From: Vermamoeba vermiformis
Lineage: Eukaryota
Direction of reading: 5' to 3'
Length of the DNA: 64,000 nucleotides
NCBI GenBank assembly: GCA_045837725.1
Contig: JBEWZL010000260.1
Span: 1 to 64,000, forward strand
The notes under the pieces are model-generated. The model had not been told where the DNA came from. It was given only the letters and a program-made list of their open reading frames with translations, and did not search any database. Of the stretch, positions 28,893-48,450 are shown in pieces (within the stretch, counting starts at the first letter, position 1; every line of letters starts with the position of its first letter). A program made the position numbers and the translations under genes.

Positions 28893-28992
28893 CGTAGTAC
28901 AAACATATTTTGAGGAGTTATTATAGCTAAATCATTTATTTGAAGTGATTCTTTACAAGACTATTTCATATTAGATAACTTACGGATTATTT

Positions 28993-29573
28993 CTACAAGG
29001 CAACTAATAACGGAGCCCATGAGCGAGCACTGAGAAGACTGTCCAACGCAGGATACGAACGAAAAGCACCAGCATGAACTGAAACGACTGTTGGTGGTCG
29101 GTTTCTCGCGGAAAGAAAGTCAACTTTCGATCGCGCTCTCGTTTTTCCAATCAATCCTGTATCCTGTAATAAACGATTTTCAATGCACATTACTGTATTG
29201 ATGCCATTGAGGCATTGAAACAAGTCAGTGATGTAATTAATTGCGGATGTCCACTGACCGTCATCCGGAAAATCACACGGGAGCAATCGATTTGCTCCCA
29301 CAATAGCGTATTATACTATGCGTAGAATTATCATACCTTGGCACGTGGCTTCGCAGCTCGTTGCTGTGATGCTCGTTGATGTCGATCGACTGATCTGCTG
29401 ATAATATTAACAAATAGCAATTATTGATGTCAGATCGGATGTGCAAGCAACGTAATTTGAACACGAGCAATTGATCGCTCCAATGCAATAGCAAAATATA
29501 TGGTAACGTACATTATTTGTTTGCGTAGCTGCTTCGCCAGTCTGTGCTGTGGTGCTAGGTGTTGTCGCGCCAT
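28993..29573 (-). CDS. Possible small basic spliced ORF (~100 aa)
   Basis: MARQHLAPQHRLAKQLRKQI|IRSVDRHQRASQQRAAKPRAK|DTGLIG... joins in frame via two GT-AG introns; no homology recognised. Confidence 0.25.
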
Positions 29574-29579
29574 CCAATC

Positions 29580-31330
29580 TAAAAATAACGTTAAAAATTA
29601 CGAGGGATCGAAAGCTGCGAGCACATTAAGGCCACTAATACTAATTGATAGTAACCTTTTATATTAATACTATAGTTAAATTAACATGTGCTTACCTTTC
29701 AATCATTACACTAATTTTAGTATCGAATCCGCGTTTCTCTATCATACTCATCATTTGAGGCCACCTAATCATATATTTTGTTAGAGAGAATATACTGCAA
29801 GTGTATTATGTCACAGACATCCCTGGCACTTCGTATTACTCGGAGAGGTGACCGCCACCAGATCGCCGATCGGCTATTGAACACATCAACTTGCTATTCT
29901 AAATATAAAAACGCGTTAATATGTATGTATAAATAACTAAAATGACAAAACTTACACGTAGAATTATCTCCAACAAATTTTCTTCTCGCGAATCCGTTCA
30001 ACTTACGGATCGCGTCTCTCTTTCACGTTCGCAATTTCATTCGATCTAAATGTATAAAACGTTAGTATTTATATATAGCTATCGTGGTATACTACTTACT
30101 TTGCTATCTTTGATTATTTGTGCACGTGATTTAATCGCTATCGGATTGGTGTTCTCGTCCTTGAAATTAAATTGCGGCGCTTCTTATAACTATAATAAGA
30201 ATAACATTAATACTTTACAATTGACTCAATAAACATTGTTTACTTGCTTTTAGCGCGATCGACGCGTGTGTAATCAGTTGATGGCTCGCGTGTCAGACTT
30301 CGAAAATTTTCAACTACGGGGGTCCCTGCATAAATTGAGTCAGTAATACAAATAATTATTATAGTGATTATGTATTATTTACGTAAATAAAGCTTACCTT
30401 GTAATCGCTAATTTTTGAGGATCGCGCATCCCAAGTTGCGGATTTCATTATTGTATGTCTTCATTCGATAAATCTAGTAGGATACAACGTTAGTACTTAT
30501 AACTAATAAACGTGTAAATAAACTTACACACTTTTCATTCGTTACTGCCGCGAGATTTGACCCCAGTTAGATCACGTGCACGCGATCTGTGAAATTAGAT
30601 CATAACCCTTGAAATATCCTAAAAATGCTATCAATACGTTTCAATTAATAAGTCAAATACAGTCTTGTTACCTTGTGCGCAATTGATGCGTTGTGTCAAT
30701 GGGATAACCGACAAGACGATCGACTTCGATTTGATTTAGCGTGGGATCTCGTCTGTGCAAGTCCTGCAGAAGAACAAACCGTTTGTTCTTCTGCAGGACT
30801 TGCACATTAATAACTAATAAAATAATAATTTTAAAGCATTGCACTTACTTATTTTAGCGATTGATGCATGCGCACCATCAAATTTGAAGGAAAGTTAGCC
30901 CTCGATCTGCGCGTCCTACTTATTAATAATATTATTAAATATTTATAATAATTAAATTGTATAGTATTACTTGCACTTATTATTTTGGGCTTGAGGGTTA
31001 AATAATTAGCGCGAGCAAGATCGCGAAGATGTCGCGATCAATATCGGTCTCTCCGCTTAGCGAAACAGCTTCCACATAAGATTAAACAATTAATAAAACT
31101 ATTTGCACAATTTTCAAAATTAAAAGTGGTTATCCCCAAATTGAATTGATCATTACCTCGATCTCAACGGGTTCGAGCTCTGAGCTTGGCGAGTAATTTA
31201 ATCCAAATGACTCACGCTGAACGGCCGTGGCTACCGTGGCGTCTCTCTGCTGTAAATAACTACTCACAAGAATATATTTCGACCCTTGTGGTCGATTTGT
31301 TGGCGACTGTTGCGAAATAACCACTGTGAT
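29580..31330 (-). ncRNA. Putative spliced non-coding hairpin-exon array, block A
   Basis: Regular AT-rich introns (29899-29955, 30046-30099, 30190-30243, 30326-30397, 30474-30527, 30619-30671) with GTAA donors, YTRAC-like branch points and AG; exon 29956-30045 has stops in all three frames. Confidence 0.5.
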
Positions 31331-32024
31331 TATTTTCGCATCAGCTGACCTGTGTGGAGACCCGTGGAGATTTAATTTGCTTTTATTTAACAATTATTAC
31401 AGTTTAAATGTAGTTCGTACTCGTTCTAATATTAGCAAAATCTAGATCCGTTCGTAATTGATCAGATAGACTCCGTAAATCGCTGATTGTGAAAATGTTA
31501 AGAATAACGATTTAAAATAGGTTTAATCTACTTACGTAAGTAGATCGAATCTCGATCAGTTTCTCGTAACTATTAAATTCCGTGTAATTTTAAAAATTTA
31601 AAATGGCGCATTCCTTGCGTTCTTATTGACTATTCTTATTACTATCACGCGTCCAACGCATTTTGGTAGCTTTAACACAGCAAGTACCGTATTTCCTAAT
31701 TAGGAAAACATATACGTAAGTTCGTAACCGGCCGTTACGAATATTTCACATCTTCGCATTATGTTGGGTACTATAGTTCTTTTATTATTACAGTTATATA
31801 TTTTGGCGCATGCCATTGCCAAATTAAAGCAGACGGATGTAAACAACGGATCAACGGATTACATCCGTTCTGAGATCCGGTAAGATGCTATTTTAATAAT
31901 ATTGTAATAGATATATTAGATAAACAGAAAATTTTGAACTTACATCCGTATTGATAATAATTATTTAGCAATTTTTTGGATTTGTAGTCGTTGTTTTAAT
32001 TCATTCGTTGTATTAAGAATATCT

Positions 32025-33042
32025 TTGACCGATTTCAATGAGCTTTATGAAGAAGATATTGATGAGGATATTGAAGAAGAGATTGACGAACAAATTGAGC
32101 TCAAACTGCGAAGATCTCCACGCAATCACCAACCAATACCAACAAATCGGCGAAAGGCTAAGGGACGGAAGAATGTTTGGAGATCAACTACGCTGAAAGA
32201 GATCCCTCCAAGATTCACTTCACGGACAAACGTAGATGCTATATCAGCAGCGGCACAGTATGACATAGATACGTTTACTGTCATTGACGGCAATTATCAA
32301 GTGCTTGTTCCAGGTCCTGGTTGCCCTCAAGACAGGACGTATATTAAATCAATCAAAAATGCGCTGCCCAAAAAATTGGTGGATCGAGTCACACGATCAA
32401 TTAGACATCTCAAAGACTGCAACAAAGCAGAACAAAGAGGTGACATAAATGGTTGGTCCTATCATATTGGTTCTTGGACTCCGCAAGGTGGCACAGAGAT
32501 TAGAGCCACAGCTGCCTCTTTGTCATTGAAAGGACTTGATGTCTTCAACCGCGTACTAGCAGGACAACGGGGACTTCGCGCTAGAATTGAGCGCTTGGTA
32601 CACAAACACTTTTTATTCATGTCAAGACGTTACGAAGAAGTGACCAAAGGAGATGACGATGCAGTGACTAGCGTATACCGAACAATGGCAATCAACATTG
32701 ACGGAGAGTCAAAGCCACATATTGACTCCGGTGACTACGGTGATGGACTGTGCTTAGTAATGCCTTTTGGAGAGGACTATGAAGGTATTTATTTTTCAAA
32801 GTCCCGATCTCGAATAATGAAAAACATTAGGAGGAGATTTGGTCTTTTATGAGCTTGGCTTGCGGTTTGTATTGAAACCTGGTGATGCTATATTCTTTAA
32901 GAGCAAGCAATTGCTTCACGGTAACGCCCCTGTTAAAGAGTGTCTCTCACGGCATTCGCTGACGTGCTTCACTCACAGCATTGACTTTCATCCACGATAC
33001 CAAAAAAAGGTCAAAATCAAGAATAATGCCATAATAAACTGA
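32025..33042 (+). CDS. TET/JBP-family 2OG-Fe(II) dioxygenase (start codon unresolved)
   Basis: AINIDGESKPHIDSGD (HxD); 46-nt intron 32785-32830 gives EGGDLVFYELG; LKPGDAIFFKSKQLLHGNAP (distal His); RHSLTCFTH (2OG-binding Arg). Confidence 0.85.
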
Positions 33043-33349
33043 TAGTGTATGTTTTTAGGGTGTTGACTAGCAAACTTTGGTTGGTAAAAGTGGATCTGAA
33101 AAATTGCGTTGCAAATCCAATTTTTCTGCACATTTACGATTACAATGTAACATGTTAAGCATAATGATATATTGACACATATAATAAAATTTTTTATTGA
33201 TATATAAAATGTTTCAATAACCCCACTATCCGTCAAAAACGGCACTTTGGACATTTGATCACTTTTTCAAACTCGACATCATCTTGTGTTAATAATGTGA
33301 AAGTTATTTTGTTGTTATTAAGACATCTATAATCTTTGCTTATACTTGA

Positions 33350-35290
33350 AAAAACTAGATTCTGTTCGTTGTTTGCATGATCCAGTGATTTGCAAGATCA
33401 ACGGGAAAAATGGAACAAGAAGTTGCTGCATTCTGATATTATGCTCTAAAATATGTTAAATGTAAATAATAACTCTTATATAAATAACCGTGACAACTTG
33501 CCTTAGTCATGCATTGAACTTGAGATCACTACCGAAACCGGATCAACGGTAAAATTAAACTCCTATTGATTCTAGTAACAATAACGAGTTATAAATGCAT
33601 GTAAAACTAACAATAAAACGTAAATATAATTACCAATTATGCTCTAAATTATAACTTGACGAATCGAGTTTTGTCTGATCTCGTTCCAGTTATAACTTTG
33701 TTAAAGGGTCGCGTTGAACCCTCTCAATCTATCTTCATATTAATTATATTGCAATAAATACAATTCAAACTTACCTTAGTTGTTGGAGCCATCACTAGAA
33801 ACGGAAATAACGCGCCAGATCACGTTACCAAATCCGCTCCGTGTCATTTCCTACACATTAAATTAGTATCTATGAGTTAATATATTAATAAATAAGGGGT
33901 TTTGCTTACCTTCAGAGCGATCGATGCTCTCTATATAAATTTTCTAAACGGATCGAGATGCGTCTGATCTCGATCTCGTTAATTTTACTTAGGGTTTCAG
34001 AGCGATTCCTAATTATAAAAACACGTTAGTATTACTCAATATCTAACGTTTGAATACTTACAGGGCTAGCTTTCAATCAATATATCGAAATTGTTAACGC
34101 GAGAAGATCGCGTTCCAGATCCGCTCTCGCACTTTTACAAGGCCTGAATAAACGGCTTAATATTGCATAAGTTCTATATATCTATATTAAAGGACTTACA
34201 TCACAGGAAAAAACAGCTGAAAAACCAGCCAGTAATCCACCAGTATCCTTGCCCGATCGCATCAAGCTTGAGATATTGTCGTGAGTGGCTATGAAGGTGG
34301 CGAAAGTGTGACGCGAACGAAACAAATGTAGATGTCACGTCCCGACCACCAATTGGTGGTTGAGATCTCGCGTATCGAAAGTGACTGTAACTTTCGTTTG
34401 CGCTCGATCAAATCCAAGACATTGAATTATTACTTGAAAAATTAAATTTGAATAACAAATCTCGGTCTCTGCACCGAAACCTCATCGTCGCTATCTATCG
34501 AAATGACTCGCACTGTAGCAACTTTGGAGTCGCGGCGCGTAACTTCCTGCTGTCAATAACTCCATATTTAATAATATTTCGACCTTTGTGGTCGATCTGT
34601 CATAACTTTGTTATTTAGGCAATTATATTATTGTAAAAATACTTACCTGGGTACGTTGCATCAGGCGCATCCGATCGCCTGATCAGTTGAAAATCTTGCC
34701 GGTGAGTGACAGTGAGAATGGCGAGGGCGTGACACGAACGAAGTAAATGTACCTATCGCGTTCCGACCATTGGCAGTCGGGATCTAGCACACCGACGGTA
34801 CCACAAGTTAACTTTCAAACGCGTGAATAAATTGTGATCACTGTGGAAATAAAAAGTTACTTGTTAATATATCGACTATAGTGTAATTTAATCATTTCGA
34901 CCGTATAAAATCCAGATCAAATACGAGCTCGATCGATATGGTAGAAAAATTAAATATTCAATTAAGGAGAAAATATGTTTATAAATAGTGGAGCTATTAG
35001 AAAAAAAATATTACCTTAAATTATCTCGGTCACTACACCGAGATTTGATCGCGTTTTGTTCGCGATCTTAAAGCCGCGCTGGAACGACGCTGAATGTCGT
35101 TTGGCGCGTGTTGAATATAATAACTCCTATAATAGCAATAAATCGACCCTTGTGGTCGATCTGATGCGAATCGAAGTTCGCGTCGACTTCTTCCAAATAA
35201 CTCGCGCTGAACGGCCGTTGCGACCGTGGCGCGTAACTACCGTCTGTTAATGAACAATAAATCGACCACTGTGGTCGATCTGTCTTAGTT
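33350..35290 (-). ncRNA. Putative spliced non-coding hairpin-exon array, block B, plus double-hairpin units
   Basis: Introns such as 33851-33909, 34009-34061 and 34144-34199; exon hairpins homologous to block C. Confidence 0.5.
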
Positions 35291-35837
35291 ATGAAAAATA
35301 ATTTCCTTGCGGTAGAATTGGTAACGTATGAGGTAAATTATACAATTTATATCAAAAGCAATCAAATACTCAATATTGAATATTTAGGTTCGATCCGAGC
35401 CAGTAGTTCAGAACGGATGTAAATCTAGTAACGGATATAAGACGAAATAAAAGCATTATAAATATTAAAAAGATTTCACTTAATGTTATCGAGTTTAATA
35501 TGAAACTTGTTATGACGAGTTCGAGTTAAACTTTTACCGTTTTTCTGTGATCACAGAAAACTGGCCAACGAGATTTCCCGTCACGTGCTTTCGTTGCATA
35601 TTTATGCAGTGAAAGCATGTGAATTTTGCTTACTTACCGAATAATAATCAATATGACGCAGGGAACCGTCATTTTAAAAGTTAAAATTACTCTCGTAAAT
35701 TAAAATTACGAGATACGGATCGAGCTTCGTGCCGTGTAAAATTTAAATCGTTGTTTATTTTATAATTAACATATATTAATCGGTATTTAATGGGTAATTT
35801 GAACGTTCGAGCCCGAACACGCGATCTGTGATGAAAT

Positions 35838-35971
35838 TGAAATGATTGTAAGACAAGGAGTAGGATAAGAAGACGTTTATTGTGATAGTTACAGCGCTAT
35901 TTATGCTATCGAAAGGGACATTTCCCTAACGATGCGCAATATCGTTCCAACGATATTCGCAATTCGTTACA
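35838..35971 (-). repeat. 3' LTR
   Basis: Identical to 41208-41341; preceded on the minus strand by PPT AGGAAGGGAGAA (35972-35983). Confidence 0.97.
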
Positions 35972-36016
35972 TTCTCCCTTCCTTATATTGAAGTGGTATA
36001 TATATAATAAAAATAA

Positions 36017-39000
36017 CTATTTCTTACTAAAATTGAGTCGTGTGATTTCCTTTGCGAAGCGGATGTCAAAGTGATCGAGCAGATCGGCGATGTAGGCAAG
36101 TGATTCGGCGCGAGTCTTGATCTGAGGGATTTCTTTGTCGAATTTACGAGAGAGCGAGCTGAGAACAAAGGCAGATCCAGTGCCAAGTAATTCTTTTAGC
36201 TTCTTCGAGATCTTGATGAGCGGGTAGTGAGGCATTCGCTCAATGTCGAGTTTGAGGCGGGACAATTCATCGCGCAGCAAATAAAAGGTGTCGAGAGCGG
36301 ACAATTGGCGGCGTCTGGATCGTGGTTGAACTTCGGGTTCTTCTGCGTTATAAATTTCTTCGAGAATTTCAGCAGCTGATTTTCCTTCTTCTTCGTACAA
36401 TGTCTCGGGTAATTTTTCTTCTTCAGGCTTCGTTTCGGGGGTGTCAGGAGCGATAGTTGAATTTTCAAGCAAGTGTATGTCGAGATCTTCTTCTTCTTTT
36501 TCTTCTACTTCTTCTTTAACTCTCTTCTCCTTAATTTTCGGTTGCGGCATGAGCGCTGGGTCGCGAAGAGTGACTGGCGCTAATTTCTCGATGTGAATGT
36601 GGAATCGTTGAGCGGGATCAGATTCGGATGCGATTAAATATGTCAAATTATTCAATTTTTCTATAACCTTGAAAGGGCCTTCATATCGAGGTTGAAATTT
36701 CTTCTGACCAGAGATGACTGGAATCTTCTTGTAGACGAGATCACCAATGTTGAATTCGTGAGCGGACTTTCCTTTGTCGTAATTCTTCTTCTGATGAGCG
36801 TGGGCTTTGTCGAGAGCTTTATTAGCAAGTTTGTAGGCGTCGTTGAGCTTGTAGAGCTGCTCGCGGACCCATTCGTTGAGCGTGGTCGGATCTGTATTTT
36901 TAGAACGGATCAAATCCAGATCGCAAGGCAGGCGTAAAATTCTTCCGTAAACGAGTTCTGCGGGACTATAACCAGTTGATGCTTGCATGACAGTGTTGTA
37001 AGAGAAGATGACGGCACGGAGATTTTCATCCCAATTCTTTTCGGCACGGGTGACGAACGCGGAGAGCATTGTTGCTAAAGTTTGATTAAATTTCTCAACC
37101 AAACCATCGGTTTGAGGATGATACGGCGTTGTGAATATTTTCTTCGTTTGCAAGAAGGTTGTCAGATCTTTGAGAAGTTGTGACGTGAACTGCGATCCTT
37201 TGTCTGAGAGAATTCTTGACGGAGCACCATAGCGAAAGACTACTTCGTCGAGAAGTAATTTGGCGATTGTCTGAGCTTCCATGTCGGGAACTGCGAAGGC
37301 TTCTACTAACTTCGTAAAATAATCAATAAATACTACGATGTACTTGTTGCCATTGTGCGATTTCTTGAGCGGGCCTAGAATATCGACGCCAATAACATCG
37401 AATGGAAATTTTCCTTGAACTCTTCCCATTTTTCCAAATTTGGGGTGGCGACGGAATTTTCTTTTGTTGCAGAATTCACAGCTGAGAACGTAGTTGCGGA
37501 TGTCGCGTTGCATGTTGGGCCAGTAGAATCGTTGTCGAACACGGTCTAGAGTCTTGAAAAATCCTAAATGAGCACCCATCTTAGAGTCGTGGCACAGTTG
37601 CAGGATCTGGTAGCGCATCGATAGCGGAATAACTAGTTGATACGCGGAATCAAATCTACGATTGTGAGCAGCAGGAGCGAAGCTTCTATAGACGATGTTG
37701 TCAGGACCAAGGACCAAGTCTTTGCATTCCATATAAATTCGTTGAACTTCATTCTTGTCGTCAGTGTCGAAAACTCCTTCTTTGAGATATCTGAAGTAGC
37801 GCGAGATTATCGGGTCTTCTAATTGAGCGATGTTGAGATTCTTGAGAATAGTGTCGAAAGTAGTGTCTTCATAAACAGCAGCAATATCATTTGAGCGAGC
37901 AGGAATGCGCGAGAGAGCGTCAGCGTTCGAGTGTGTTGAACCAGGGCGATGAACTATGTCGAAGTCGTAGTCTTGCAATTTCAATGACCAGCGGCAAATT
38001 CTTGAGTTCGTATCAGTCGTTTCTTTGAGCCATTTAAGCGCGATATGATCTAAAATAACAGTGAATTTTCTTCCAATTAAATAAGGTCGGAAAATTTTGC
38101 AGGCGTCCACGAAAGCAAGGCATTCTTTCTCCGTAGTTGTGTAGTTTCGTTCGGCGGCGTCCAATACGCGACTCCAGTAGGCAATGACTGAGGGCTGTTG
38201 CGGATCTTCTTGAGGCTGTTCGAGAACGGCGCCAATACCAACATCTGAGGCGTCGGTGTAGAGCACAAAGTCTTTGTTGAAGTCTGGGAAGCGTAGTACA
38301 GGCTTTGTCGTGAGTGCGAGCTTGAGACTGTTGAATGCGCGTTGTTGAGTAGACTCCCATTTAAAAATAGCTTTCTTCGATGTCAGCGATGTCAGTGGTT
38401 CGGCGATCGTTGCAAAATCAGGAATAAATCTGCGATAATAACCGGCAATACCAAGGAAACTCTTCAGTTCGGACTTGTGTTGAGGGACAGGCCAATTAAT
38501 GATAGCAGCGACTTTGTCGGGATTAGGACTGCATCCTTTTGACGAGATGATGTGGCCAAGGAACGGAATTTCTTCGAGACAAAAGTTGCATTTCTCCGGT
38601 GACAGCTTGATGTTCGCGCTGCGAAGACGATCTAGGACTGTTTGAATATTCTTGAGGTGTTCTTCAAAGTTTCGTGAGAAGATAATAATATCGTCTATGT
38701 AAACTAAGCATATTTCATAGAGCAAACCGCTAAGTACGAGATCCATCATTCGCTGAAATGTTGCTGGTGCGTTCGTTAAACCAAAAGGCATTCGTTTGAA
38801 TTGAAACAAGCCTCTGTGTGATACAAAAGCTGTTTTCTCGCGGTCGTTGACGTTCATGAGGATTTGCCAATAGCCTTTTCGTGCATCCAGTGTAGTGAAG
38901 TAAACCATGCCTGCGAGTGAATCCAGGGTGTCGTCGATACGTGGCAGGGGATAGGCGTCCTTCTTGGTAAGGGCGTTGAGCCCTCTAAAGTCGATACAAA

Positions 39001-40111
39001 AGCGAAATGTTCCGTTCTTCTTTTTGACGAGATGGACAGGCGCGGCCCATGGCGATTCAGACGGTTCTATTACGTTGTTCTTAAGCATATAATCTATCTC
39101 TTCATCAATTACGGCTTTCTGTTGTGGCGTTGTGCGTCGGAGTCGTTCTTGAACTGGCTGAGAATTCGGATCTGTCAAATTGATGTGACATTTGACGTTT
39201 GACACATTTGTCATTCCTTCGTCATTGTCGGCAAATAAATCACGGTAGTGAAACAAGACTTCTTTAAGAGCGAGTGACTGAACAGTGTTGATCTTGGACT
39301 TTCGGAACGAGTGATCCAATTTCTTGAAGAATTCTTCTTTCTGAGCGGCAGGGACTTGAGCATTGTCGACAGAAGCGATTTGACCTTGATGGTGTTGAAG
39401 GATGATGTCATCGTAGGGCACAAAGTGTCCAATTAAAGTACCAGCAGGAATAGTAACGGCGTGATATTCCATATTTAGAAATTGAACGTACATTACTCCG
39501 TTGCGGACAGCACTAAGAGTACGACCAACTGAAGCTTTGAAGAGGCGTCTGAAGCGTGTGCTAGGTTCTACTATGCCAGAGAATGAGCCACGGTTGTTTG
39601 GAAGTTGATAAGTGATTCGAGTGCGCGGATCCAAAACTAATTCTTCGTCCAAATAGAGCTTTTGATGAATTGGAGTGACTGGCGGAATATTCATGAATTG
39701 TCGTTCTTGAGTAACGGGCGAGTGCTTGGGGTCAGTGCGAAGTACGAGTTGATTGTTGTCTTGATCTAGTAACGCTTGATATTTTCTGAGGAAATCATTC
39801 CCTAGAATAAATTGCGAGCGCATATGGGGTACGATAATAATTGGTATTATCCAGGTGACCAAATTAATACGTACTGATCCATAAATTTCACCAATGTTCG
39901 GGATCGGCGTATCGTTGAGCGCTCCCAAGTTGGCGAATCGAGGTTGGAGGGGTGGTTTGTTGGGTAGGGCATTGTAGACATCGACTCTCATTAATGTGAA
40001 AGACGCTCCGGAGTCAACCAGTGCATCCACTGCAGTGTCATTAATTTCGAGACGGATGTGCGGGCGAGTGTCGGGTTTGTTGTTGTGGTCGGTCGCATTG
40101 TTCTTATCCAT
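36017..40111 (-). CDS. pol: Pol polyprotein: aspartic protease, RT, RNase H, integrase; probably entered by -1 frameshift at ~40165
   Basis: LVDSGAS; YIDD; YTDAS; H..H..C..C zinc finger; DILG / SDKGSQF / VEKFN DDE; GPF motif. Confidence 0.97.
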   Translation of the reverse strand: MDKNNATDHNNKPDTRPHIRLEINDTAVDALVDSGASFTLMRVDVYNALPNKPPLQPRFANLGALNDTPIPNIGEIYGSVRINLVTWIIPIIIVPHMRSQFILGNDFLRKYQALLDQDNNQLVLRTDPKHSPVTQERQFMNIPPVTPIHQKLYLDEELVLDPRTRITYQLPNNRGSFSGIVEPSTRFRRLFKASVGRTLSAVRNGVMYVQFLNMEYHAVTIPAGTLIGHFVPYDDIILQHHQGQIASVDNAQVPAAQKEEFFKKLDHSFRKSKINTVQSLALKEVLFHYRDLFADNDEGMTNVSNVKCHINLTDPNSQPVQERLRRTTPQQKAVIDEEIDYMLKNNVIEPSESPWAAPVHLVKKKNGTFRFCIDFRGLNALTKKDAYPLPRIDDTLDSLAGMVYFTTLDARKGYWQILMNVNDREKTAFVSHRGLFQFKRMPFGLTNAPATFQRMMDLVLSGLLYEICLVYIDDIIIFSRNFEEHLKNIQTVLDRLRSANIKLSPEKCNFCLEEIPFLGHIISSKGCSPNPDKVAAIINWPVPQHKSELKSFLGIAGYYRRFIPDFATIAEPLTSLTSKKAIFKWESTQQRAFNSLKLALTTKPVLRFPDFNKDFVLYTDASDVGIGAVLEQPQEDPQQPSVIAYWSRVLDAAERNYTTTEKECLAFVDACKIFRPYLIGRKFTVILDHIALKWLKETTDTNSRICRWSLKLQDYDFDIVHRPGSTHSNADALSRIPARSNDIAAVYEDTTFDTILKNLNIAQLEDPIISRYFRYLKEGVFDTDDKNEVQRIYMECKDLVLGPDNIVYRSFAPAAHNRRFDSAYQLVIPLSMRYQILQLCHDSKMGAHLGFFKTLDRVRQRFYWPNMQRDIRNYVLSCEFCNKRKFRRHPKFGKMGRVQGKFPFDVIGVDILGPLKKSHNGNKYIVVFIDYFTKLVEAFAVPDMEAQTIAKLLLDEVVFRYGAPSRILSDKGSQFTSQLLKDLTTFLQTKKIFTTPYHPQTDGLVEKFNQTLATMLSAFVTRAEKNWDENLRAVIFSYNTVMQASTGYSPAELVYGRILRLPCDLDLIRSKNTDPTTLNEWVREQLYKLNDAYKLANKALDKAHAHQKKNYDKGKSAHEFNIGDLVYKKIPVISGQKKFQPRYEGPFKVIEKLNNLTYLIASESDPAQRFHIHIEKLAPVTLRDPALMPQPKIKEKRVKEEVEEKEEEDLDIHLLENSTIAPDTPETKPEEEKLPETLYEEEGKSAAEILEEIYNAEEPEVQPRSRRRQLSALDTFYLLRDELSRLKLDIERMPHYPLIKISKKLKELLGTGSAFVLSSLSRKFDKEIPQIKTRAESLAYIADLLDHFDIRFAKEITRLNFSKK

Positions 40112-40161
40112 AGGCTCTAATAACTGCGCGACAACAGTTGAGCCTTGACTCTTGTCGCGTT

Positions 40162-41181
40162 CTAGTTTTCCGGACGAGATCCAGGCACAGATCTCACGTT
40201 GTTGTTGTTAGGGGCTGATTGGACATGTTGAGGAGCATAATTCATCTCGTGGACTTCGGCGATGTCGTGTGGGCGTTGACCAGGTGGTTTGTAGGGCGAG
40301 CGAGCAACATAGCGAGACGTATCTGACGGAGTTGAACTCTTCTGGGGCTGAGAAGGGGCTGATGGCGAGGTACGATAATCTTTCTTGCGAACTGTGACGT
40401 TGCGAGGATCGAAGGGCAAAGTTTCGCGTGCAGTGTCAGATGCAACGTTGCACTCGTACGAATAATGACCTTTACCACCACAAGCAAAGCAGGTGATATT
40501 GGCCGTAGAATTGGAACCGTTTTGTTGCTTACCAGAATTTTTGGATTTTTCTGGCGTTCGTTTGACATTTCTCTGTTCAGATCCGGATTTAGGTCGGAAT
40601 AACTTTCTGCGACGATCTTCGAGTTGAATGAGTTGCTGGTAGAGTTCTTCTACATTCTTGGCTTCGGGAAACGTGACCATTTGAGCTTTCCAGTCGTTGG
40701 GCAAACCTTTGAGGATCAGATCGAGTTGTTGAGATTCGCTTTTAAGATCTGAGCGGGTTGTAAGTTCCACCGCTCGATTAAAATAACTTTCAACAGTTTC
40801 GTTAAAAGTCATTCTAAAATTGAGGATTTCATCGAGACTAGCGTAGGCCTTAACTCTGAGAATGCTTGCAGAAAGATTCTCGAGAATTTTGTGCGGATCG
40901 TCAACATTGAGACACTTTTGGATGTGGTGCTTGTGAGAAGCCAATCGAGTCATCAGAGCACGTAGAAGCTCGGCAGAGTTGAGACTGAAGATTTGAACGG
41001 TGAGAGCTAGGTTGGTGAACCATTCAAAGCATTGTTGACGTTGCGTGTCAGGATCAGGAATCGGATCAACGGCAGCAATGAAACTATTGACTTTAGCAGA
41101 GTCAATATTCATATCCTCCCGCTCCTTATAAATAGGCACGTGTGACAGTTTCTTGAACGGAGAGACGAGATCTCGCTCCAT
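40162..41181 (-). CDS. gag: Gag with CCHC zinc knuckle
   Basis: ETVESYFNR...ILKGLP; CFACGGKGHYSYEC; first ATG after the PBS at 41181. Confidence 0.95.
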   Translation of the reverse strand: MERDLVSPFKKLSHVPIYKEREDMNIDSAKVNSFIAAVDPIPDPDTQRQQCFEWFTNLALTVQIFSLNSAELLRALMTRLASHKHHIQKCLNVDDPHKILENLSASILRVKAYASLDEILNFRMTFNETVESYFNRAVELTTRSDLKSESQQLDLILKGLPNDWKAQMVTFPEAKNVEELYQQLIQLEDRRRKLFRPKSGSEQRNVKRTPEKSKNSGKQQNGSNSTANITCFACGGKGHYSYECNVASDTARETLPFDPRNVTVRKKDYRTSPSAPSQPQKSSTPSDTSRYVARSPYKPPGQRPHDIAEVHEMNYAPQHVQSAPNNNNVRSVPGSRPEN

Positions 41182-41187
41182 TGTTGA

Positions 41188-41205
41188 CCGGTATGTTCGG
41201 AACCA
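41188..41205 (-). promoter_or_regulatory. Primer-binding site (TGGTTCCGAAC..., possibly tRNA-Glu type)
   Basis: TGG begins 2 nt after the 5' LTR; tRNA identity is inference. Confidence 0.75.
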
Positions 41206-41207
41206 AA

Positions 41208-41341
41208 TGAAATGATTGTAAGACAAGGAGTAGGATAAGAAGACGTTTATTGTGATAGTTACAGCGCTATTTATGCTATCGAAAGGGACATTTCCCTAAC
41301 GATGCGCAATATCGTTCCAACGATATTCGCAATTCGTTACA
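41208..41341 (-). repeat. 5' LTR
   Basis: Identical to 35838-35971. Confidence 0.97.
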
Positions 41342-41346
41342 GAAAT

Positions 41347-42400
41347 CACACGCTTCAACTGTACATCAAGGAGTTAATAATTGATTAGATATAATATAAA
41401 AGGTTAATTAACTTACCTATTGAGAGCTGGCGACTTTTGTCAGCGATCCAAGATCGCGCCAAGTCCAAAATTAACGCGTAATCGGGGTAACTGAACAATA
41501 AAAGGTTATTAGAATTATCATTAAATAAGTTATATAATGTTTATTACTTACTTCAAGAGCCTTCAGAGCTCTTCAGCAAAACTTTAACGGATCGAGATGT
41601 GTCGGATCCCGATCCGAATTATCGCGCTCAAGGGTCGCTCTGACCTTTTTCGATCTACGCTAACGTTAGCAATGATCAGTTAAGCATTATATTGCCTTAC
41701 CTCGGTCCATCAATTAGCACTGACAAGAGTGTTAACGCGCTAGATCTCGCGCCACCAAATCCACCAAAAATTCTATTAAACGATTCTAATAATAAATAAA
41801 GATGTCAGTTTATTACCATTATAATGTAAAATCAATTTTACTTACTTTTGACGCGATCGATGCGCGTCACTGAACTTACGAGAGATCGGGTTGTTAGGGT
41901 GCGCGAGACGTCTCCGGCCCCAGCTCCGTGTCATCTCCTGAACGTAAAATTGCTATCAATGAGTTACTATTCTAATATTTAAGGGGGATCACTTACCTTT
42001 AACCCAATCGATGCCCGGCAAAGAAATTTTAACGGATCGAGACTCGTCGGATCTCGATCTTGTAATTGTTCCTCTGTATTCGTTTTCAGTATTCCTAATG
42101 ATATAACGCGTTAGTAATGAACTCTGTCTAACTATAGAATTACTTACCAGTCCATTATAACAAATGTAATTGATTTGTTAACGCGAGAAGTTCGCGTTCG
42201 AGATCCGCTCTCGTTAACTATTAACACCTAAAATAAAAGTGTTAGATTGTTAAACAATAATAAAATAAACGATTTAAACTACTTACGTTTGATTCATTAC
42301 TGGGAATCGAGAGATCGGATTCGCTCTCGATCTGTAACTCGCACCAAAATTCTGACGTTCAAATTGCCTATTAAATAACGATTAATATATTATGTCAACT
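41347..42400 (-). ncRNA. Putative spliced non-coding hairpin-exon array, block C
   Basis: Seven consecutive introns (41359-41416, 41491-41551, 41655-41700, 41786-41845, 41938-41996, 42095-42147, 42228-42286), all with GTAAG donors; the two exons tested do not join into an open frame. Confidence 0.55.
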
Positions 42401-42939
42401 ATAAAATAAGCAACAATTTGAATTTTACACGAGCACGAAGCTCGATCCGTATTTCGCAATTATTTAAATTCTAACTGTAATTTTAAATTTTAAATTGACG
42501 CGTTCCCTGCGTCATATTGATTATTGTTATTAATAAAAAATAACTTACCAATTATTCTGATGCGTCCAACGCATCCGATCTCGCCATCAAGTTGCCAAAC
42601 CAACGAGCGAGCTGTGGTGATCGTCCCTGCAGCGGGACACGAACGGAAAAGGCCAGGATACCGCGAAACGACCATTGGTGGTCTGGATCTCGCGCATCGA
42701 AAGGGATTGGAACTTTCGATCGCGTTAGAAAATGGCGACGAGTTTCTGTATTGAAAATTAATCATTAATATAATGTACTATAATTAATAAAACGATATTC
42801 AGAAAAAAATCGGGTTAATTTACGACGCACTAAGCTCGATCCGATCTAATTAATTTATACTCAAAAATTTAAAAATTGAATTTATGCTATCGTAATATTA
42901 TAATAGGTGGAACTATTGTATAAAAAATATTACCTTTAA

Positions 42940-43680
42940 TAATCTCGGTCATTGCACCGAGATTCGCACGACACTAGATCGCGTTCTTAGTCTCGCTGGA
43001 ACGACGCTGAAAGTCGTTTGGCGCGTGTGTATTTATAGCAAATAACATATATAAATAACCAGATCGACCCTTGTGGCCGATCTGTTGCGACTCTTGCATT
43101 CGCTGCTGTCAATCGTCGAAATAACTCGCGCTGAACGGCCTTTGTGGCCGTGGCGCGTAACTATCTGTTGTTAATTAACAATAATAAATGAATATAACGA
43201 CCTTTGTGGTCGTTCTGTTGAATTACTGATGCGAAATAGCCCGTGCGCCATTTTCGCATCGGCTCAAATCCGCTGATCCTCCGAAAAAACTCGCGCTGGA
43301 ACGGCTCTGATGCCGCGGCGCGTTACTATCAGCTGTAAATAAACGGTAAAATAAATAACTCGACCCTTGTGGTCGATCTGTCTAAGGTTTTAAAAATAGT
43401 TTCTGAAATTGACGCGTGCGATTTTGACTTATCCGAAATAACTCGCGCTGAACGACGTTAGAGTCGTGGCGCGTCACTAACAGGTGCTAGTAATCAATAA
43501 ATAATCAATTATTCGACCCTTGTGGTCGATCTAACAATTTCGCATCTGGTTTGTTCCAAAAATAACTCGCGCTGTAACGGCTCTGATGCCGTGGCGCGTT
43601 ACTATCAATTGAAATAGCATCTAAACAATAATAATAAATCAGTTGAAAGTTCAATTTGGCCCTTGTGGTCGATCTGTCGC
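42940..43680. repeat. Tandem array of five ~125-165 bp double-hairpin units
   Basis: ctcgcgctg(g)aacgRc-N6/7-gYcg(t)ggcgcg followed by tcgaccYttgtggtcgatct; also at ~31205, 34501, 35075 and 35195. Confidence 0.9.
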
Positions 43681-44445
43681 GGACTTTAAAGAAAAATTGG
43701 CAAAAAATGCGGCGAGTAACGAGAATCTCGTTCATCTCGCGGATTTAATTTTAGATCGAGGTTCAAATCTAACCTCAAACTCAACCAAATATTAAATTTT
43801 TGTTATAATTCTTGTTATTACGTACCTTCAATGCTTCCATTGTAATTAAATGTCCACAGTTCTTCGTTGATCCGTCAATCTGACAAGACGGATCTCCGCG
43901 ACGTTTTCTTCGCCTCTTTGTCGCCGAGAATTTTTCTGGTATTTTTCCTGGTGGATAGTCGGCAGTCTGAATAATATCTAAGCAATGAATTTCCATAATG
44001 AATTTTTCAGTCAAAGTTAGCTATCCGGATCCCCTCAAGGGCCCTGGGGACCCGCCGCTATTTCCGCCTTACCTGGTCGAATCAATTTCTTATCTCATTA
44101 GGTCATATCTGGATTCATCACTGCCTCAGCTCTCATCATTGGCTTCAAGTGAAGCTGTTTGGCATCACAGCTACTGACACATTCCAAGACATGGCCTAGT
44201 GTTCACGCACTTGCATATACCAACTTGTGGACCCTGCTTGTCAGGATTTAGAGTGGGTCTTTGCACATCATGTATTCATTAATCAATGTTTGCACTCTAC
44301 AATTACACTCACCCTCAAACCAAATCCTACAGTAGTAATTAATGTATTATATTTTGAGTGAAGTTCCAGTACAAATTTTTATGAATCTCAGTAAAATAGT
44401 GCTTAGACCAGATATAATTTGCCAACAATACTTGGTAACTGCAAT

Positions 44446-44733
44446 AAATTTTGGCACCTGCTAGCAGGTTTACCAGGGCTAGTGAAAACAAGAAAATTTG
44501 GCACCTGCTAGCAGGTTTACCAGGGCTAGTGAAAACAAGAAAATTTGGCACCTGCTAGCAGGTTTACCAGGGCTAGTGAAAACAAGAAAATTTGGCACCT
44601 GCAGCAGGTTTACCAGGGCTAGTGAAAACAAGAAAACTTGGCACCTGCTAGCAGGTTTACCAGGGCTAGTGAAAACAAGAAAATTTGGCCCCTGCAGCAG
44701 GTTTACCAGGGTTACTGAAAACAAGAAAATTTT
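44446..44733 (+). repeat. R1 47-bp tandem repeat, ~6 copies, with 14-bp palindrome ACCTGCTAGCAGGT
   Basis: Unit aaaatttggcacctgctagcaggtttaccagggctagtgaaaacaag. Confidence 0.95.
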
Positions 44734-44767
44734 TGGATCCAAGTCAGATTGAAGCAATAACACAACA

Positions 44768-45679
44768 ATGGAGAGTGATGATATTGTTATTGACTTAAAT
44801 GCTTTACCAGATGACCACTGGGATATCCAACAAGAGGTGGATGGGGATGCTAATTCTGAAACAGTAAGTGTTTGGGTTTATGTGCAATTAAGCAACAAAT
44901 TAATTAATGAGAGAATTAATTATTTTTAATTAATTTTTACTTTTTTTTTGCAGTTACTTTTGGCAATGGAGCTATTTTACCAAGAGGAATGGACAAGAGT
45001 GAGCTCTCAATCCATAGCCAAATATTTTGAAGTAATCCTGCATCAATTACAAAGTTGGACTATTGTCAACCCATTCACAACAAATTTTGCAAAATATAAA
45101 GAAGATTGTGCATCATTGTGCTTGGAGCTTAGATTAGTCAGCAAATCATTCTACAATTCACAAATCTTGGTTAAACATTTTTTTGTTTCTCAGATGACCT
45201 TGAACTGCCCATTCAACATTGTGGTCAAAATTTTCAAGATACCACGTTACTTTGCCACAAATTTGTTTGAAATTGCAGCAGTAGCCCAGAGCATGAATGG
45301 TCTCATGTTGGCTTGCCTTGCTCACAATGCAAACCCACAAAAATACCAATTGGGACATGGCTTAAAGGCAATTTGGCTGAATAGGTGGATAAATGGTGCT
45401 GCTCTAGTGTATGACCACTTAATCCCTAGTGAAGATCCGGAAGCCAAACTTTGGATGGTTTCTTTGTATCGTTTGTCTGATACTCTACTTTATTTTGCTA
45501 AATCTTTGGGGAACAAATTGGACATGGATCTTGTGCATGAGTTTTTTGAGGAGGACATCAATGATTATCTGAACTCAACTATTGATACAGATGAATTCTA
45601 CACCACAACAGAAGATAACTACTATGATTATGATACGTTAATAGAGGGTATTAATTATCCTCAATTGAACTTTGATTAA
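44768..45679 (+). CDS. Hypothetical two-exon protein, F-box-like segment followed by helical repeats
   Basis: Exon 44768-44863 splices in frame to 44954; LCLELRLVSKSF is F-box-like; acidic tail. Confidence 0.6.
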
Positions 45680-45870
45680 AAATGGAGTGCCCTTTCTATC
45701 TAGCATCAAGCTACGTCTAACTTTTATAGCAAACTGTAACAGTTAATATACAATAAATAAATTACAACCTTTTATAAGTTATTGATGGGAAAAATCATTT
45801 ATTCAAACTTAACTACTTGCACCTTACGGTTGCAAATTACAGGGACAAAGTAAGATAGTAAATTTTCTGG

Positions 45871-46072
45871 TAAATTCTAATTTTGGAAATAATGATTCAT
45901 GAACATTTACAATTCATGAATAAATTCAGGTAAATTTGTGTGGATGCAGGTAAACTTGCTAGCAGTAGCCAAAATTTCATGTTTTCAACAGCCCTGGTGG
46001 ACCTGCTAGCAGGTGCCAAATTTTCATGTTTTCAATAGCCCTGGTAGACCTGCTAGCAGGTGACAAATTTCC
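45871..46072 (-). repeat. R1 inverted copy
   Basis: ATTCATGAA palindromes followed by ~2.5 reverse-complement 47-bp units. Confidence 0.9.
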
Positions 46073-47316
46073 TACTGGTAAGCCAAAATTTTTGATATTT
46101 CTCATGTAAATGAAGGATTCTTTGTGTGTTTGATATGAAAGAGAGCAAAAGCAGAGATCAAGAAACGCTCAGATCAGCTGCCCTGTTAGTGGGTGTACTA
46201 ATACTTGTTTTTTATATATTACTCTGCAACTATGCCTAAGCATGTAGCTATGAATACTCCTGGACTTGAATCAGTAGTTTTGGAATTTTATTATCAAGCA
46301 ACTATTTTTAAAACATTTATTAAATCATCAAAATTAGAAATTCAAAACTGTCTAATTGTGGTAGTTGCTCCTTAGTTTAAGTTGACCTGTAAGTCAATAG
46401 CAGATGTATCAAGCCAATCTCATTAATTTTCCAAAAACACTTTACTTGGACAAAAAATTGTCTTTTTGATTTGTAACAGCTAGTTTTTAGTGAAGTAAAA
46501 CTTTTCAACTACAACTCCAGTTTTTTTGATTGGAATGAAAATACATGATATTAGGAGCCTAACAAAGCAAATCACCATCACTTCTGTTAATTACTCCTTG
46601 GACACATGCTGGGTACCTAGGATTCTGTACGGAGAGGGTACCCTCACCACCCACTCTGTCAGCCAATGGAATTCAAGATGCTCAGAATCCTAGGTGTTTA
46701 AAATAGTAGGAAGCCAGTCATGGAATCCTAGGTGCCCAACAGGGGGCCCCTCTCCTTATGGAATTCTAGGTGCAAAGACAAGTAATACAAAGTGCCTGGA
46801 ATCCAAAGTGCCCAAAATCATAGCTGTCCAGCCTTGGTTAATGCAAAATTTCATTTGATTTCATTTGATTGCATTCGATTGCATTCGATTGAACTTCAGC
46901 TCCAGTGGCCTGGACAAGCACCACCAGCATCCTTCTTGTATCATTTGAGTTTGGCCATTATATTTACATCCTATACTGATAGTATATACTACAGGGACAT
47001 CTTATATTGCATGTTTCATCAAAATTTTAGCAGATCCAGTGAAAAAACTCCATGAATTGCAAATGTTGAATATGCACCTATGATTTAAGATTACCCATTA
47101 TTATAGTGCTTAAAGTTTAATCATCTTTAAGCAGTAGTGCATCCTTTCAAGTAAGTTTAACAATTGTAGCTAATAATATTAGCTTGATCCATCAATAAAA
47201 AATTCAAACTAACTGATAGAGGAAGTTATTATTTCAAAACAACAAGATATGTATGCCATTTGCTAATAAATGACCATTTAGAAGGTTATCTTAATCCTAC
47301 CTGAAACTTTCTTGCT

Positions 47317-47560
47317 AAATTCTAATTTAGGAAATAATGATTCATGAACATCTACAATTCATGAATAAATCAGGTAAATTTGTGTGGACATGGATGAACT
47401 TGCTACCAGTAGCCAAATTTTCCTGTTTTCAACAGCCCTGGTAAACCTGCTAGCAGGTGCCAAATTTTCCTGTTTTTGACAGCCCTGGTAGACCTGCTAG
47501 CACGTGCCAAATTTTCTTGTTTTCAACAGCCCTGGTAGACCTGCTAGCAGGTGCCAAATT
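47317..47560 (-). repeat. R1 inverted copy (direct repeat of 45871-46072)
   Basis: taaattctaattt.ggaaataatgattcatgaac... followed by ~3.5 reverse-complement units. Confidence 0.9.
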
Positions 47561-47799
47561 CAGTACATTAGTAAAAGACCTACAGGCACTTGTGTAATAG
47601 AATGAGACAATTGAAGCAGGGTTTTCCTTGATACTATTATTAGGACTCCTGAAAAACAAAAATAATCTTAACAAAATTTCTAATAAGGAATAAGAAACCG
47701 GTTCTAGAGCAAGGCAACTCTACCCTTCAATTGCTATGCTCTTACGCCTTCTCTTTTGCTTTAAAATTTATCATTACCATAAAAGGAAAAAAGGGCAAA

Positions 47800-48450
47800 A
47801 GCGTCCCCACCCAGGGGACAGTTTTCTAAAAGCATCCCCTCAGTGGGGACGCTTTTTTTAACAATGTTTTTGAAATTTTTGTTTTTTATTTGAAAAAATC
47901 AATACACAAGAAACCCTAGCAAAAATATTAGCCCTAGAGTATATATAATGCCCCCCCCCGTCCCCCTGGCGGACGGGGTCCTATTAAATAAATATACCCC
48001 CGTCCCCCTGGCGGACGGGTATCCATCAAGTATTTCAAGCCCAACATACCTGAAGCTGAACCACACAGGTCAGGTGTAAGGTAAGCACCTAGTGAGGTTG
48101 AGGCTGTGCATTAGCATTGAGTATGTACCTGATGCTGAACCTGTCAGGTTGAGGTATTTGCTACAAACCTGATGCAGGAGGTAAAGGTACATGACAGTAC
48201 GATCCCGAAGTGGATACAGCACCCCCCCGTCCGCCTGGCGGACGGGTCCTTATTAAATTAATATACCCCTGTCCCCCTGGCGGACGGGGTCCTATTAAAT
48301 AAATATACCCCCGTCCGCCAGGTGGACGGGTATCCATCAATTGTATAACTGGGTATACCTCAAGCTGAACCTTGCAGGTTAGGTACTATTTACTTTCCCA
48401 GTGTAGCATGGGTTGATAACGTGCCCCCGTCCCCCTGGCGGACGGGGTCA
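47800..48450. repeat. Cluster of GC-rich hairpin repeats (CCCCGTCCCCCTGGCGGACGGGG x6)
   Basis: Copies near 47956, 47997, 48224, 48267, 48308 and 48424, interspersed with acct.a.gctgaacc...caggt motifs. Confidence 0.9.

Follow-up and report, generated by a model that had tools for sequence, protein, structure and literature searches.

In the basidiomycete Cryptococcus, a genome defence system based on stalled spliceosomes uses the quality of the introns in repeat transcripts to decide whether these enter the RNAi pathway. In fission yeast, intron-containing non-coding RNAs transcribed from repeats are coupled to silencing: as described in the available excerpts of two studies, transcription of the dg, dh and cenH repeats is driven by a CCAAT-binding factor, and the production of siRNA is dependent on the spliceosome (PMC11696164, PMC5322907). 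The available part of a further report proposes that TET genes carried by transposable elements help these to evade methylation (Kojima 2025, PMC12730594).

The window considered here is a 64,000 nucleotide stretch of contig JBEWZL010000260.1, in which an earlier note had described three blocks of regularly spliced, non-coding, hairpin-bearing exons around a TET/JBP gene. A literature search found no paper on such arrays. The tentative explanation given here is that the blocks, which lie within a CpG-rich island, are diverged paralogous copies of a transcription unit rich in introns and without protein-coding capacity, comparable to a lncRNA gene and forming a repeat family.

Organisation and splice signals of the array

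The minus strand of positions 28984-35834 and 41342-44090 consists of 29 GC-richer exon-like segments alternating with AT-rich intron-like spacers. The block pattern originally noted is evident, but the blocks are not separate: judged by their sequences they constitute a single array on the minus strand, in which three or more diverged paralogous units follow one another in tandem, split by a young Ty3/gypsy retrotransposon (35838-41341). Unit C (41342-44090) comprises five tandem promoter-like modules followed by exons C0 to C8 and the start of C9 (43030-42934, 42745-42549, 42367-42287, 42227-42148, 42094-41997, 41937-41846, 41785-41701, 41654-41552, 41490-41417 and 41358-41342). Its tail, on the far side of the retrotransposon (35640-35834, minus strand), contains the remainder of C9 and an inverted copy of an element from intron 1 (35640-35806, 85% identical to 42355-42528). 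Unit B (33600-35305, minus strand) is a paralogue of unit C in which the module and E1 part is duplicated internally, with exons at 35111-35015, 34840-34647, 34412-34200, 34143-34062, 34008-33910, 33850-33775 and 33728-33634. Unit A (28984-31350, minus strand) has one module and 13 exon-like segments (31249-31157, 31068-30977, 30918-30849, 30798-30672, 30618-30528, 30473-30398, 30325-30244, 30189-30100, 30045-29956, 29898-29840, 29764-29696, 29397-29337 and 29163-28984), and ends in a truncated further unit. Exons are 59-127 nt long, or 180-213 nt when of the E1 type. Units B and C share 72.5-75.5% identity across both exons and introns; a separate count put overall identity at 68% for the exons and 66% for the introns, such that the conservation formerly ascribed to the exons as a whole is confined to the CpG and hairpin cores described below.

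The upstream module, approximately 110-130 nt of sequence comprising a hairpin, an AT-rich stretch and a two-tier hairpin, is present in nine minus-strand copies detected by a covariance model (R1). Five are arranged in tandem upstream of unit C (42974-43678; individually 43550-43678, 43426-43535, 43274-43382, 43109-43219 and 42974-43086, scoring 79.9-118.2 bits), two lie upstream of unit B (35068-35284; 97.3 and 76.9 bits), one is found within unit B (34491-34601; 105.7 bits) and one precedes unit A (31195-31301; 94.1 bits), around 450 bp from the modelled start of the divergent TET/JBP gene. Such a model had been suggested as a check on conserved structure: it recovers the copies, and three of the 14 pairs in the consensus structure display compensatory changes.

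A strict intron pattern (GTAAG, 20-70 nt, a branch-like YTRAY and YAG) occurs 17 times on the minus strand of the array, with six instances in block A, four in B and seven in C, and not once on the plus strand. Shuffled sequences contained means of 0.85, 0.49 and 0.47 respectively, and the observed count was reached in none of 300 shuffles of each block; outside the island, the density of the pattern is 0.55-0.57 per kb per strand. The alternation of GC-richer segments with AT-rich introns bearing canonical signals is borne out by GC contents of 46.5% and 25.8%, and of the 24 spacers examined, 18 fall within 46-72 nt while six measure 75, 88 and 173-188 nt. The lengths match those of the organism's real introns, which are 51-56 nt in an RNA polymerase gene and 46 nt in the TET/JBP gene. 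Between the orthologous introns of units B and C, donors are kept at 6/6 and 5/6 positions and acceptors at 3/3 and 2/3, with the introns as a whole 72-73% identical. The run of consecutive GTAAG donors seen in block C exists, although eight, rather than seven, would be used (42548 to 41416), and one more is internal. The array therefore has the canonical, one-strand splice signals and organism-typical intron lengths of a spliced lncRNA gene.

Coding capacity and expression

The same features might instead be left by dead copies of an intron-rich, protein-coding subtelomeric gene family, an improbable origin for the array. The organism's ordinary genes are intron-dense, with eight matches to the pattern between 51.5 and 54.1 kb, for instance; seven of the nine exons in unit C are open, the longest ORF of the unit after intron removal is 97-109 aa, and the same frame is open through the E1-type exon in two of its four copies. 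However, exons with at least one open frame (13/29) are as frequent as expected by chance (12.6), and unit B has none among seven. Automatic intron removal produced longest ORFs of 76-109 aa across the arrays, compared with 460 and 291 aa in two control coding regions treated identically; taken over both ORF counts, the longest spliced ORFs are 46-109 aa. The ten longest array ORFs had no Pfam match at an E-value of 0.1 or below, a word-index protein search found no homologue, and an exhaustive search returned only two borderline matches, both artefacts involving repeat proteins; the continuous protein homologue that would have identified the segments as pseudogene exons was thus sought and not found by these three methods. 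The E1-type exon (42549-42745, minus strand; other copies at 34647-34840, 34200-34412 and 28984-29163) likewise lacked any credible protein relative in these searches. Its four copies align in conserved blocks, with indels whose lengths are not divisible by three and which break the frame, and three of them have a CCAAT within a small hairpin, internal to the exon, where no promoter is mapped. Loss of frame with intact splice signals runs counter to decay from a coding ancestor, within which conserved CpG palindromes and an excess of exonic hairpins would also be unexpected. The two earlier examples of closed frames are borne out: 29956-30045 contains stops in all three frames, and the sole open frame of 42367-42287, frame 1, leads into a closed frame of 42227-42148. 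By these sequence statistics, the description of the segments as non-protein-coding and intron-bearing stands.

Three ordinary RNA-seq runs with the same species label, from each of which around 13 million records were read, contributed 7, 24 and 6 reads to the 14.4 kb locus, none with at least 99% identity, in a survey without a positive control. Of these 37 reads, 33 were only partial matches, and none spanned a junction in these runs. At 95-99% identity, reads align with hairpin and E1 cores and then continue into dissimilar sequence, which shows that transcribed paralogues are present elsewhere. As there were neither near-identical reads nor junctions, the transcription and splicing of this locus remain predictions; of the regular splicing originally described, it is the strand-specific signals (17 against 0) that have been substantiated, and not the splicing itself, for which the predicted junctions were absent from the three runs, again in the absence of a positive control.

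Hairpins, palindromes and the surrounding island

The 29 exons contain 25 perfect stems of 6 bp or more, approximately fivefold more than the 4.9 averaged over 200 shuffles (maximum 12), whereas introns are not enriched (16 against 10.1 expected). Folding z-scores fall below -2 in nine of the 29 exons, and are around zero in exons A5-A10 of unit A, which are not hairpin-rich. Stems are mostly 5-11 bp long, the single exception being a 23 bp near-perfect hairpin (30754-30806, minus strand) at the start of exon A3, which has a z-score of -5.84; this hairpin weakly matches a miRNA model, at 27.4 bits relative to a gathering score of 90. The hairpins named in the earlier note are present where it placed them, as found through motif families D7 and D12 and through folding, but they recur because whole units are paralogues, and the alignment of units B and C runs against their having been reused with variable flanks.

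In the exons of units B and C, CpG positions are conserved at 80% (83/104), other G/C positions at 59% (82/138) and A/T positions at 67%, and the CpG-rich palindrome cores are better kept than their surroundings. GATCGA occurs 34 times against an expected 6.6 (4.6 per kb, compared with 0.2 per kb elsewhere), and together with related cores is over-represented 5-fold in both orientations; several palindromes centre on a self-complementary hexamer. On this pattern of conservation, the putative hairpins are conserved CpG palindromes around a GATCGA core. The minus strand is the more stably folding in 15 of the 29 exons, the summed folding energies of the module hairpins are -133.3 on the minus and -138.7 on the plus strand, and single stem mismatches of the G.U type number three and five respectively; none of these counts favours the minus strand, which leaves room for the hairpins to be palindromes of the DNA.

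The earlier note had supposed that the array served as precursor to small or guide RNAs, or as an RNA scaffold, directing the neighbouring TET/JBP enzyme, a proposal that gained no support and is now highly improbable. It would account for the proximity of gene and array, with unit A divergent from the gene and the nearest module some 450 bp from its modelled start codon, and for the density of hairpins, including the 23 bp example, and of CpG, which occurs once every 10 nt or so in the exons of unit C. Set against these are the stems themselves, which mostly fall below the approximately 20 bp criterion for small RNA precursors. Stems of 5-11 bp are too short for Dicer-type processing, and no RNA-guided TET/JBP enzyme is known. 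Across the whole window there was no Rfam match at the gathering score, and between 29000 and 44000 sub-threshold matches were at chance level; snoRNA and miRNA families were absent from introns and exons, and a tRNA search found none. No strand-specific RNA signature was found, the three RNA-seq runs, which had no positive control, gave no sign of expression at the locus, and the adjacency of array and gene is that of one locus, in an island also holding a retrotransposon.

This CpG-rich island extends over 15 kb (28984-44090), encompassing the array, the TET/JBP gene and the nested LTR retrotransposon. The observed/expected CpG ratio is 1.17-1.82 in its parts and 0.26 (2001-28900) and 0.15 (44091-48000) in its flanks, where that of TpG/CpA is 1.26-1.32, and its edge is sharp in CpG content. 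The composition indicates that the island was spared the loss of CpG undergone by the subtelomere around it, near the chromosome end, and suggests that it has long been free of methylation and is not a silenced repeat.

The TET/JBP-family 2OG-Fe(II) dioxygenase gene (31761-33042, plus strand) has predicted exons at 31761-31879, 32018-32784 and 32831-33042, the first of which, with the start codon, is a gene model only. Its single-exon translation, P0001, had no Pfam match alone, but shares 53-55% identity with P0002 and P0003, and P0003 (55% identical, and spanning both halves) matches PF12851 at 44.1 bits, above the cut-off of 34.9; the third and last exon matches the C-terminus of P0003 with 68% identity. 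Its atlas neighbours carry Tet_JBP and are mostly from Basidiomycota. Through P0003, the gene is assigned by homology to the TET/JBP dioxygenases. Its orientation is divergent relative to unit A and convergent relative to unit B, which do flank it as described; block C does not, being 8 kb away, with 5.5 kb of this distance occupied by the retrotransposon. The gene is a neighbour of the array in the same island, and no more than a putative partner. The nested element (35838-41341, minus strand), young and intact-looking, is inserted in exon C9, with LTRs identical at 136 of the 137 positions compared and a 5 bp target duplication on both sides that joins 41342 to about 35832; the LTR pair, the duplication, a gag with a zinc knuckle and a pol with RVT_1, RNase H, integrase and protease domains identify it by sequence as Ty3/gypsy.

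Much of this would also suit a repeat acting at the level of DNA, the array being internal or subterminal sequence of a TET/JBP-carrying DNA transposon or other mobile island, with palindromes that bind a transposase or regulator and splice-like signals that are relics or unused. This is unlikely, albeit consistent with the 5-fold enrichment of GATCGA-type cores in both orientations, their self-complementary centres, the structure's lack of strand asymmetry, the silence of the locus in the three RNA-seq runs (which lacked a positive control), the paralogues elsewhere and the sharp CpG boundary. In Basidiomycota and Pezizomycetes, TET/JBP genes are found in numerous lineages of DNA transposon, according to the part of the source available (PMC12730594), but that text contains neither 'hairpin' nor 'subterminal', 'tandem' only once, in a reference title, and 'palindromic' once, in stating that there are none at TET gene borders. 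No inverted repeats of at least 30 nt were found at the ends of the island, nor any target duplication, and its two borders shared only chance-level short matches, in comparisons whose power is limited by there being a single copy. The island, outside of the retrotransposon, contained no transposase domain, and no helicase-sized ORF, such as a Helitron would carry, was found. A DNA-level repeat also leaves unexplained the 17 splice signals against 0, maintained between paralogues that have diverged by 27%, and the restriction of the hairpin excess to exon-like segments.

Proposed role and comparison with known systems

If the array is instead a family of lncRNA-type units, RNA polymerase II would initiate at the tandem upstream modules and the spliceosome would excise 8-11 short consensus introns, giving a mature RNA of around 0.9-1 kb with no reading frame and CpG-rich, palindrome-bearing exons. 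The role most likely to be served, by analogy with known repeat transcripts, would be in cis, in chromatin and the RNA surveillance of repeats. Dense near-consensus introns would either feed a repeat-silencing pathway or let the transcript escape it, and escape is favoured because it is more consistent with the unmethylated state. A bolder and quite improbable extension is that the units and the TET/JBP gene constitute a self-protecting island free of methylation, in which hairpin RNA, efficiently spliced from its many introns, or CpG-palindromic DNA acts with the local dioxygenase to keep the 15 kb unmethylated within a subtelomere heavily decayed in CpG, at its boldest through the RNA scaffolding or tethering the enzyme in cis. 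Were the units transcribed and spliced, they would constitute an unusual fungal non-coding gene family, in which selection would be seen on splice signals and CpG palindromes and on no reading frame, and a concrete locus at which to study the part played by introns and cytosine demethylation when fungal repeats enter or evade silencing; were they not, the array would be only an odd repeat within a mobile island.

Multi-exon lncRNA genes, including the hosts of snoRNAs and miRNAs, resemble the array in having canonical introns, no frame and promoter-like upstream sequence. Unlike these hosts, it has no snoRNA or miRNA family in its introns or exons, and its exons are short, CpG-rich and hairpin-dense, within units that are tandemly duplicated and preceded by tandem modules. 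With the TET/JBP transposons it shares the presence of a TET/JBP gene among repeats, in an organism that is probably a basidiomycete, and the CpG-rich state of the island fits the proposed escape from methylation, as far as the available text describes it (PMC12730594). By contrast, the surroundings of the TET/JBP gene next to the array yielded no transposase, no terminal repeats and no target duplication, and that portion of the report mentions neither hairpins nor exon arrays.

The dg, dh and cenH units of fission yeast, as represented in the excerpts cited above, resemble the putative transcription units of the array in being repeat-family, non-coding, one-strand and multi-intron and in lying in repeat-rich chromosome regions, and the CCAAT kept in three of the four E1-type exons, if exon-internal, may recall the factor driving yeast transcription. 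However, the yeast introns are cryptic and weak, whereas the signals of the array are near-consensus and dense, and its CpG-rich island suggests an unmethylated history rather than a silenced repeat. The contrast with Cryptococcus is of the same kind: the splice signals of the array appear optimal, which predicts escape from RNAi of the Cryptococcus type rather than capture by it.

A paralogous array near a chromosome end

Thirty-two perfect hexamer telomere repeat units occupy positions 1-192, identifying the window as a chromosome end and placing the array 29-44 kb from it. The window is sharply divided by composition into a CpG-rich island at 28984-44090, whose parts all have a CpG observed/expected ratio of 1.17-1.82, and CpG-depleted flanks, with ratios of 0.26 (2001-28900) and 0.15 (44091-48000) and a TpG/CpA excess of 1.26-1.32; the housekeeping part at 52-64 kb has a ratio of 1.21. 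The depleted regions, which include large minus-strand ORFs at 5560-26898 (for instance of 645 and 668 aa) lacking significant Pfam matches, resemble ancient, methylated repeats or genes particular to the lineage. Short palindromic repeats also occur more widely at this chromosome end: a 47-nt tandem repeat with a 12-16-nt palindrome in each unit forms three arrays (44442-44732, comprising 6.2 copies with 95% match, 45949-46071 and 47397-47560), and GC-rich palindromic tandem repeats are found at 48224-48331 (42-nt unit) and 50850-51079 (21/63-nt units).

The island was described in an earlier note as containing three blocks flanking a TET/JBP gene, built from a few hairpins reused with variable flanks. 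A single array of paralogues on the minus strand is the better description, consisting of units A (28984-31350), B (33600-35305) and C (41342-44090, with a tail at 35640-35834) and broken by a retrotransposon. Units B and C match at 72.5% identity (33836-34129 against 41923-42213) and 75.5% identity (34945-35260 against 42864-43184), introns included, with orthologous introns identical at 39/54 and 43/59 positions and their donors and acceptors almost fully retained; judged by these alignments, the blocks are related by paralogy and do not draw independently on common hairpins. The interrupting sequence is a minus-strand Ty3/gypsy LTR retrotransposon (35838-41341) with an LTR pair, a 5-bp target duplication, open gag and pol, and a CpG observed/expected ratio of 1.28. 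Its LTRs are identical at 136/137 compared positions, and it looks recently active. It inserted within an exon-like segment, and block C consequently resumes at ~35832.

Each unit is headed by promoter-like modules of ~110-130 nt, in which an AT-rich stretch separates a small hairpin from a two-tier one: five tandem copies precede unit C, two precede B, one lies within B and one precedes A. A covariance model built from this module (R1) recovered every one of the nine copies with scores of 76.9-118.2 bits, each on the minus strand. Compensatory changes were few, affecting just 3/14 pairs. Scanning the window with R1 produced only palindromic echoes beyond the nine training copies, and none outside the island. 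Readings of the modules as rDNA spacer, spliced leader or Pol III small RNA were set aside, there being no rRNA or snRNA family matches and a terminal run of at least 5 T in just 2/9 modules. A 19-base hairpin core retrieved 13 metagenome contigs of 51-71% GC, which share just 21-26 bases and hence are chance matches unrelated to the array. Eight of these 13 contigs have ~70% GC, such that the matched word may belong to a conserved part of some bacterial gene.

Comparison of the copies indicates that the array is evolving through module duplication, with some hairpins retained across copies, some shifted in register and some unique to one copy. A 174-nt piece of the first long intron of unit C (42355-42528) recurs inverted at 35640-35806 with 85% identity, and could be a small mobile or duplicated segment of more recent origin. 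Its copies are more alike than the units themselves (72-75%).

Splice signals, coding capacity and expression

A strict donor, branch point and acceptor pattern occurs 6, 4 and 7 times on the minus strand of blocks A, B and C, and not once on the plus strand. Shuffled sequences gave means of 0.85, 0.49 and 0.47, the observed counts being reached in 0/300 shuffles per block; outside the island, the pattern occurs at a background rate of 0.55-0.57 per kb per strand. The regular minus-strand splice-like pattern reported previously is real and statistically strong (17 minus against 0 plus). Defined by coordinates, the array comprises 29 exon-like segments and 24 intervening spacers of < 200 nt, of which 18 are 46-72 nt long and the remainder 75, 88 and 173-188 nt; GC content is 46.5% in these predicted exons and 25.8% in the predicted introns. 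Other coding regions of the window show the organism's genes to be intron-dense, with short introns. For instance, an RNA polymerase large-subunit gene fragment (62400-64000, plus strand) is interrupted by three introns, 51-56 nt long, and a GATC/CGCG-rich stretch lies in one of them.

The proposal that the exons are non-coding is upheld by open frames at chance frequency (13/29 exons with one or more open frames, where shuffles predict 12.6, and 0/7 in unit B) and by the lack of credible protein relatives. After automatic intron removal, the longest ORFs in the arrays were 76-109 aa, whereas two coding regions of the window used as controls gave 460 and 291 aa. The ten longest ORFs had no Pfam match at an E-value of 0.1 or below; the longest own-strand ORF of unit C found no homologue in a word-index protein search, and an exhaustive search returned only two borderline matches, both to repeat proteins. 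The ~200-nt E1 exon type, present in four copies, combines conserved blocks with frame-breaking indels. That the array consists of decayed pseudogenes seems improbable. Rfam searches, at gathering and permissive thresholds, and tRNA searches found nothing. A telomerase RNA was also rejected as a candidate, the 8-nt template-like words in two exons being at chance level.

Three raw-read RNA-seq runs, tied to the window by species label only, were aligned to 29400-43800. They yielded just 7, 24 and 6 reads and no junctions, in a comparison that included no control gene; in these label-matched samples the array locus, including the TET gene, was silent. All matching reads fell into the 95-99% identity class and 33/37 matched only partially. 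Some matched the E1 core and a hairpin core before continuing into unlike sequence, which shows very low-level transcription of paralogues elsewhere.

Hairpins and CpG positions

The 30-32, 34-36 and 42-44 kb bins contain 9, 11 and 11 perfect stems of 7 bp or longer, where shuffles average 1.6-2.0; the other 29 bins of the window have 0-6. One hairpin, at 30754-30806, reaches a 23-bp stem. Stems of at least 6 bp are concentrated in the exons (25 against 4.9 expected, with a maximum of 12 in 200 shuffles), while the introns show no enrichment (16 against 10.1). Exon fold z averages -1.33 and falls below -2 in 9/29, and exons A5-A10 are ordinary.

The earlier claim that conservation lies in the exons does not hold overall, as well-aligned B/C columns show 68% identity in exons and 66% identity in introns, but does hold for CpG positions, which are conserved at 80% in exons (83/104) and 44% in introns (7/16). 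Within exons, other G/C positions are conserved at 59% (82/138) and A/T at 67%; in the upstream modules, 88% (23/26) of CpG positions are kept. Unit C exons contain one CpG per ~10 nt (observed/expected 1.68), and GATCGA and related words are ~5-fold over-represented (34 against 6.6 expected), at 4.6 per kb compared with 0.2 elsewhere. CpG-rich palindromes are thus preserved within the island, while its flanks have been stripped of the greater part of their CpGs.

Folding energies favour the minus strand in just 15/29 exons, the summed energies of nine module hairpins are -133.3 (minus) and -138.7 (plus), and single stem mismatches of the G.U type number 3 on the minus strand and 5 on the plus. 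A minus-strand origin of the module stems, suggested by five wobble pairs picked out by eye, was dropped because neither the free energies nor the systematic mismatch count shows a strand bias. The sole argument for RNA-level hairpins is an indirect one, the hairpin excess in segments that splicing would keep. The precursor of guide or small RNAs proposed in the earlier note is a very improbable reading. A tentative preference goes instead to a non-coding transcription unit of a repeat family, dense in introns and represented by three or more diverged copies in tandem.

The TET/JBP gene and known repeat transcripts

The TET/JBP-type gene lies on the plus strand inside the island. P0001, translated from its long exon, shares 53-55% identity with two database proteins, one of which, P0003, extends across the intron position and reaches 44.1 bits for PF12851 (cut-off 34.9); the exon following the 46-nt intron shares 68% identity with the P0003 C-terminus. 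A tentative gene model supplies a first exon whose start codon is at 31761. Directly before its donor site, this modelled exon (31790-31880, plus strand) has a hairpin with a 10-bp stem resembling the opposite-strand array exons. A scan with the protein found no metagenomic relatives, and its nearest atlas clusters suggest, as a lead only, that the organism is a basidiomycete. An unlikely rival reading takes the array for repeat DNA belonging to a mobile element that carries the TET gene. Many transposon lineages of Basidiomycota carry TET/JBP genes (PMC12730594), but no transposon termini were found at the island borders and no transposase in the island. A link between the array and the TET gene is unproven.

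Under the preferred reading, a spliced repeat-family transcription unit, the array would be transcribed and spliced, and any mechanism beyond that is one we infer. No account of arrays like this one emerged from a literature search. In Cryptococcus, repeat transcripts with poor introns are channelled into RNAi. Repeat transcripts of fission yeast, driven by a CCAAT-binding factor, contain multiple introns that siRNA production requires (PMC11696164, PMC5322907). Evasion of silencing fits the present array better than its nucleation, given the near-consensus introns, the CpG-rich and apparently never-methylated state, and the TET/JBP gene within the island.
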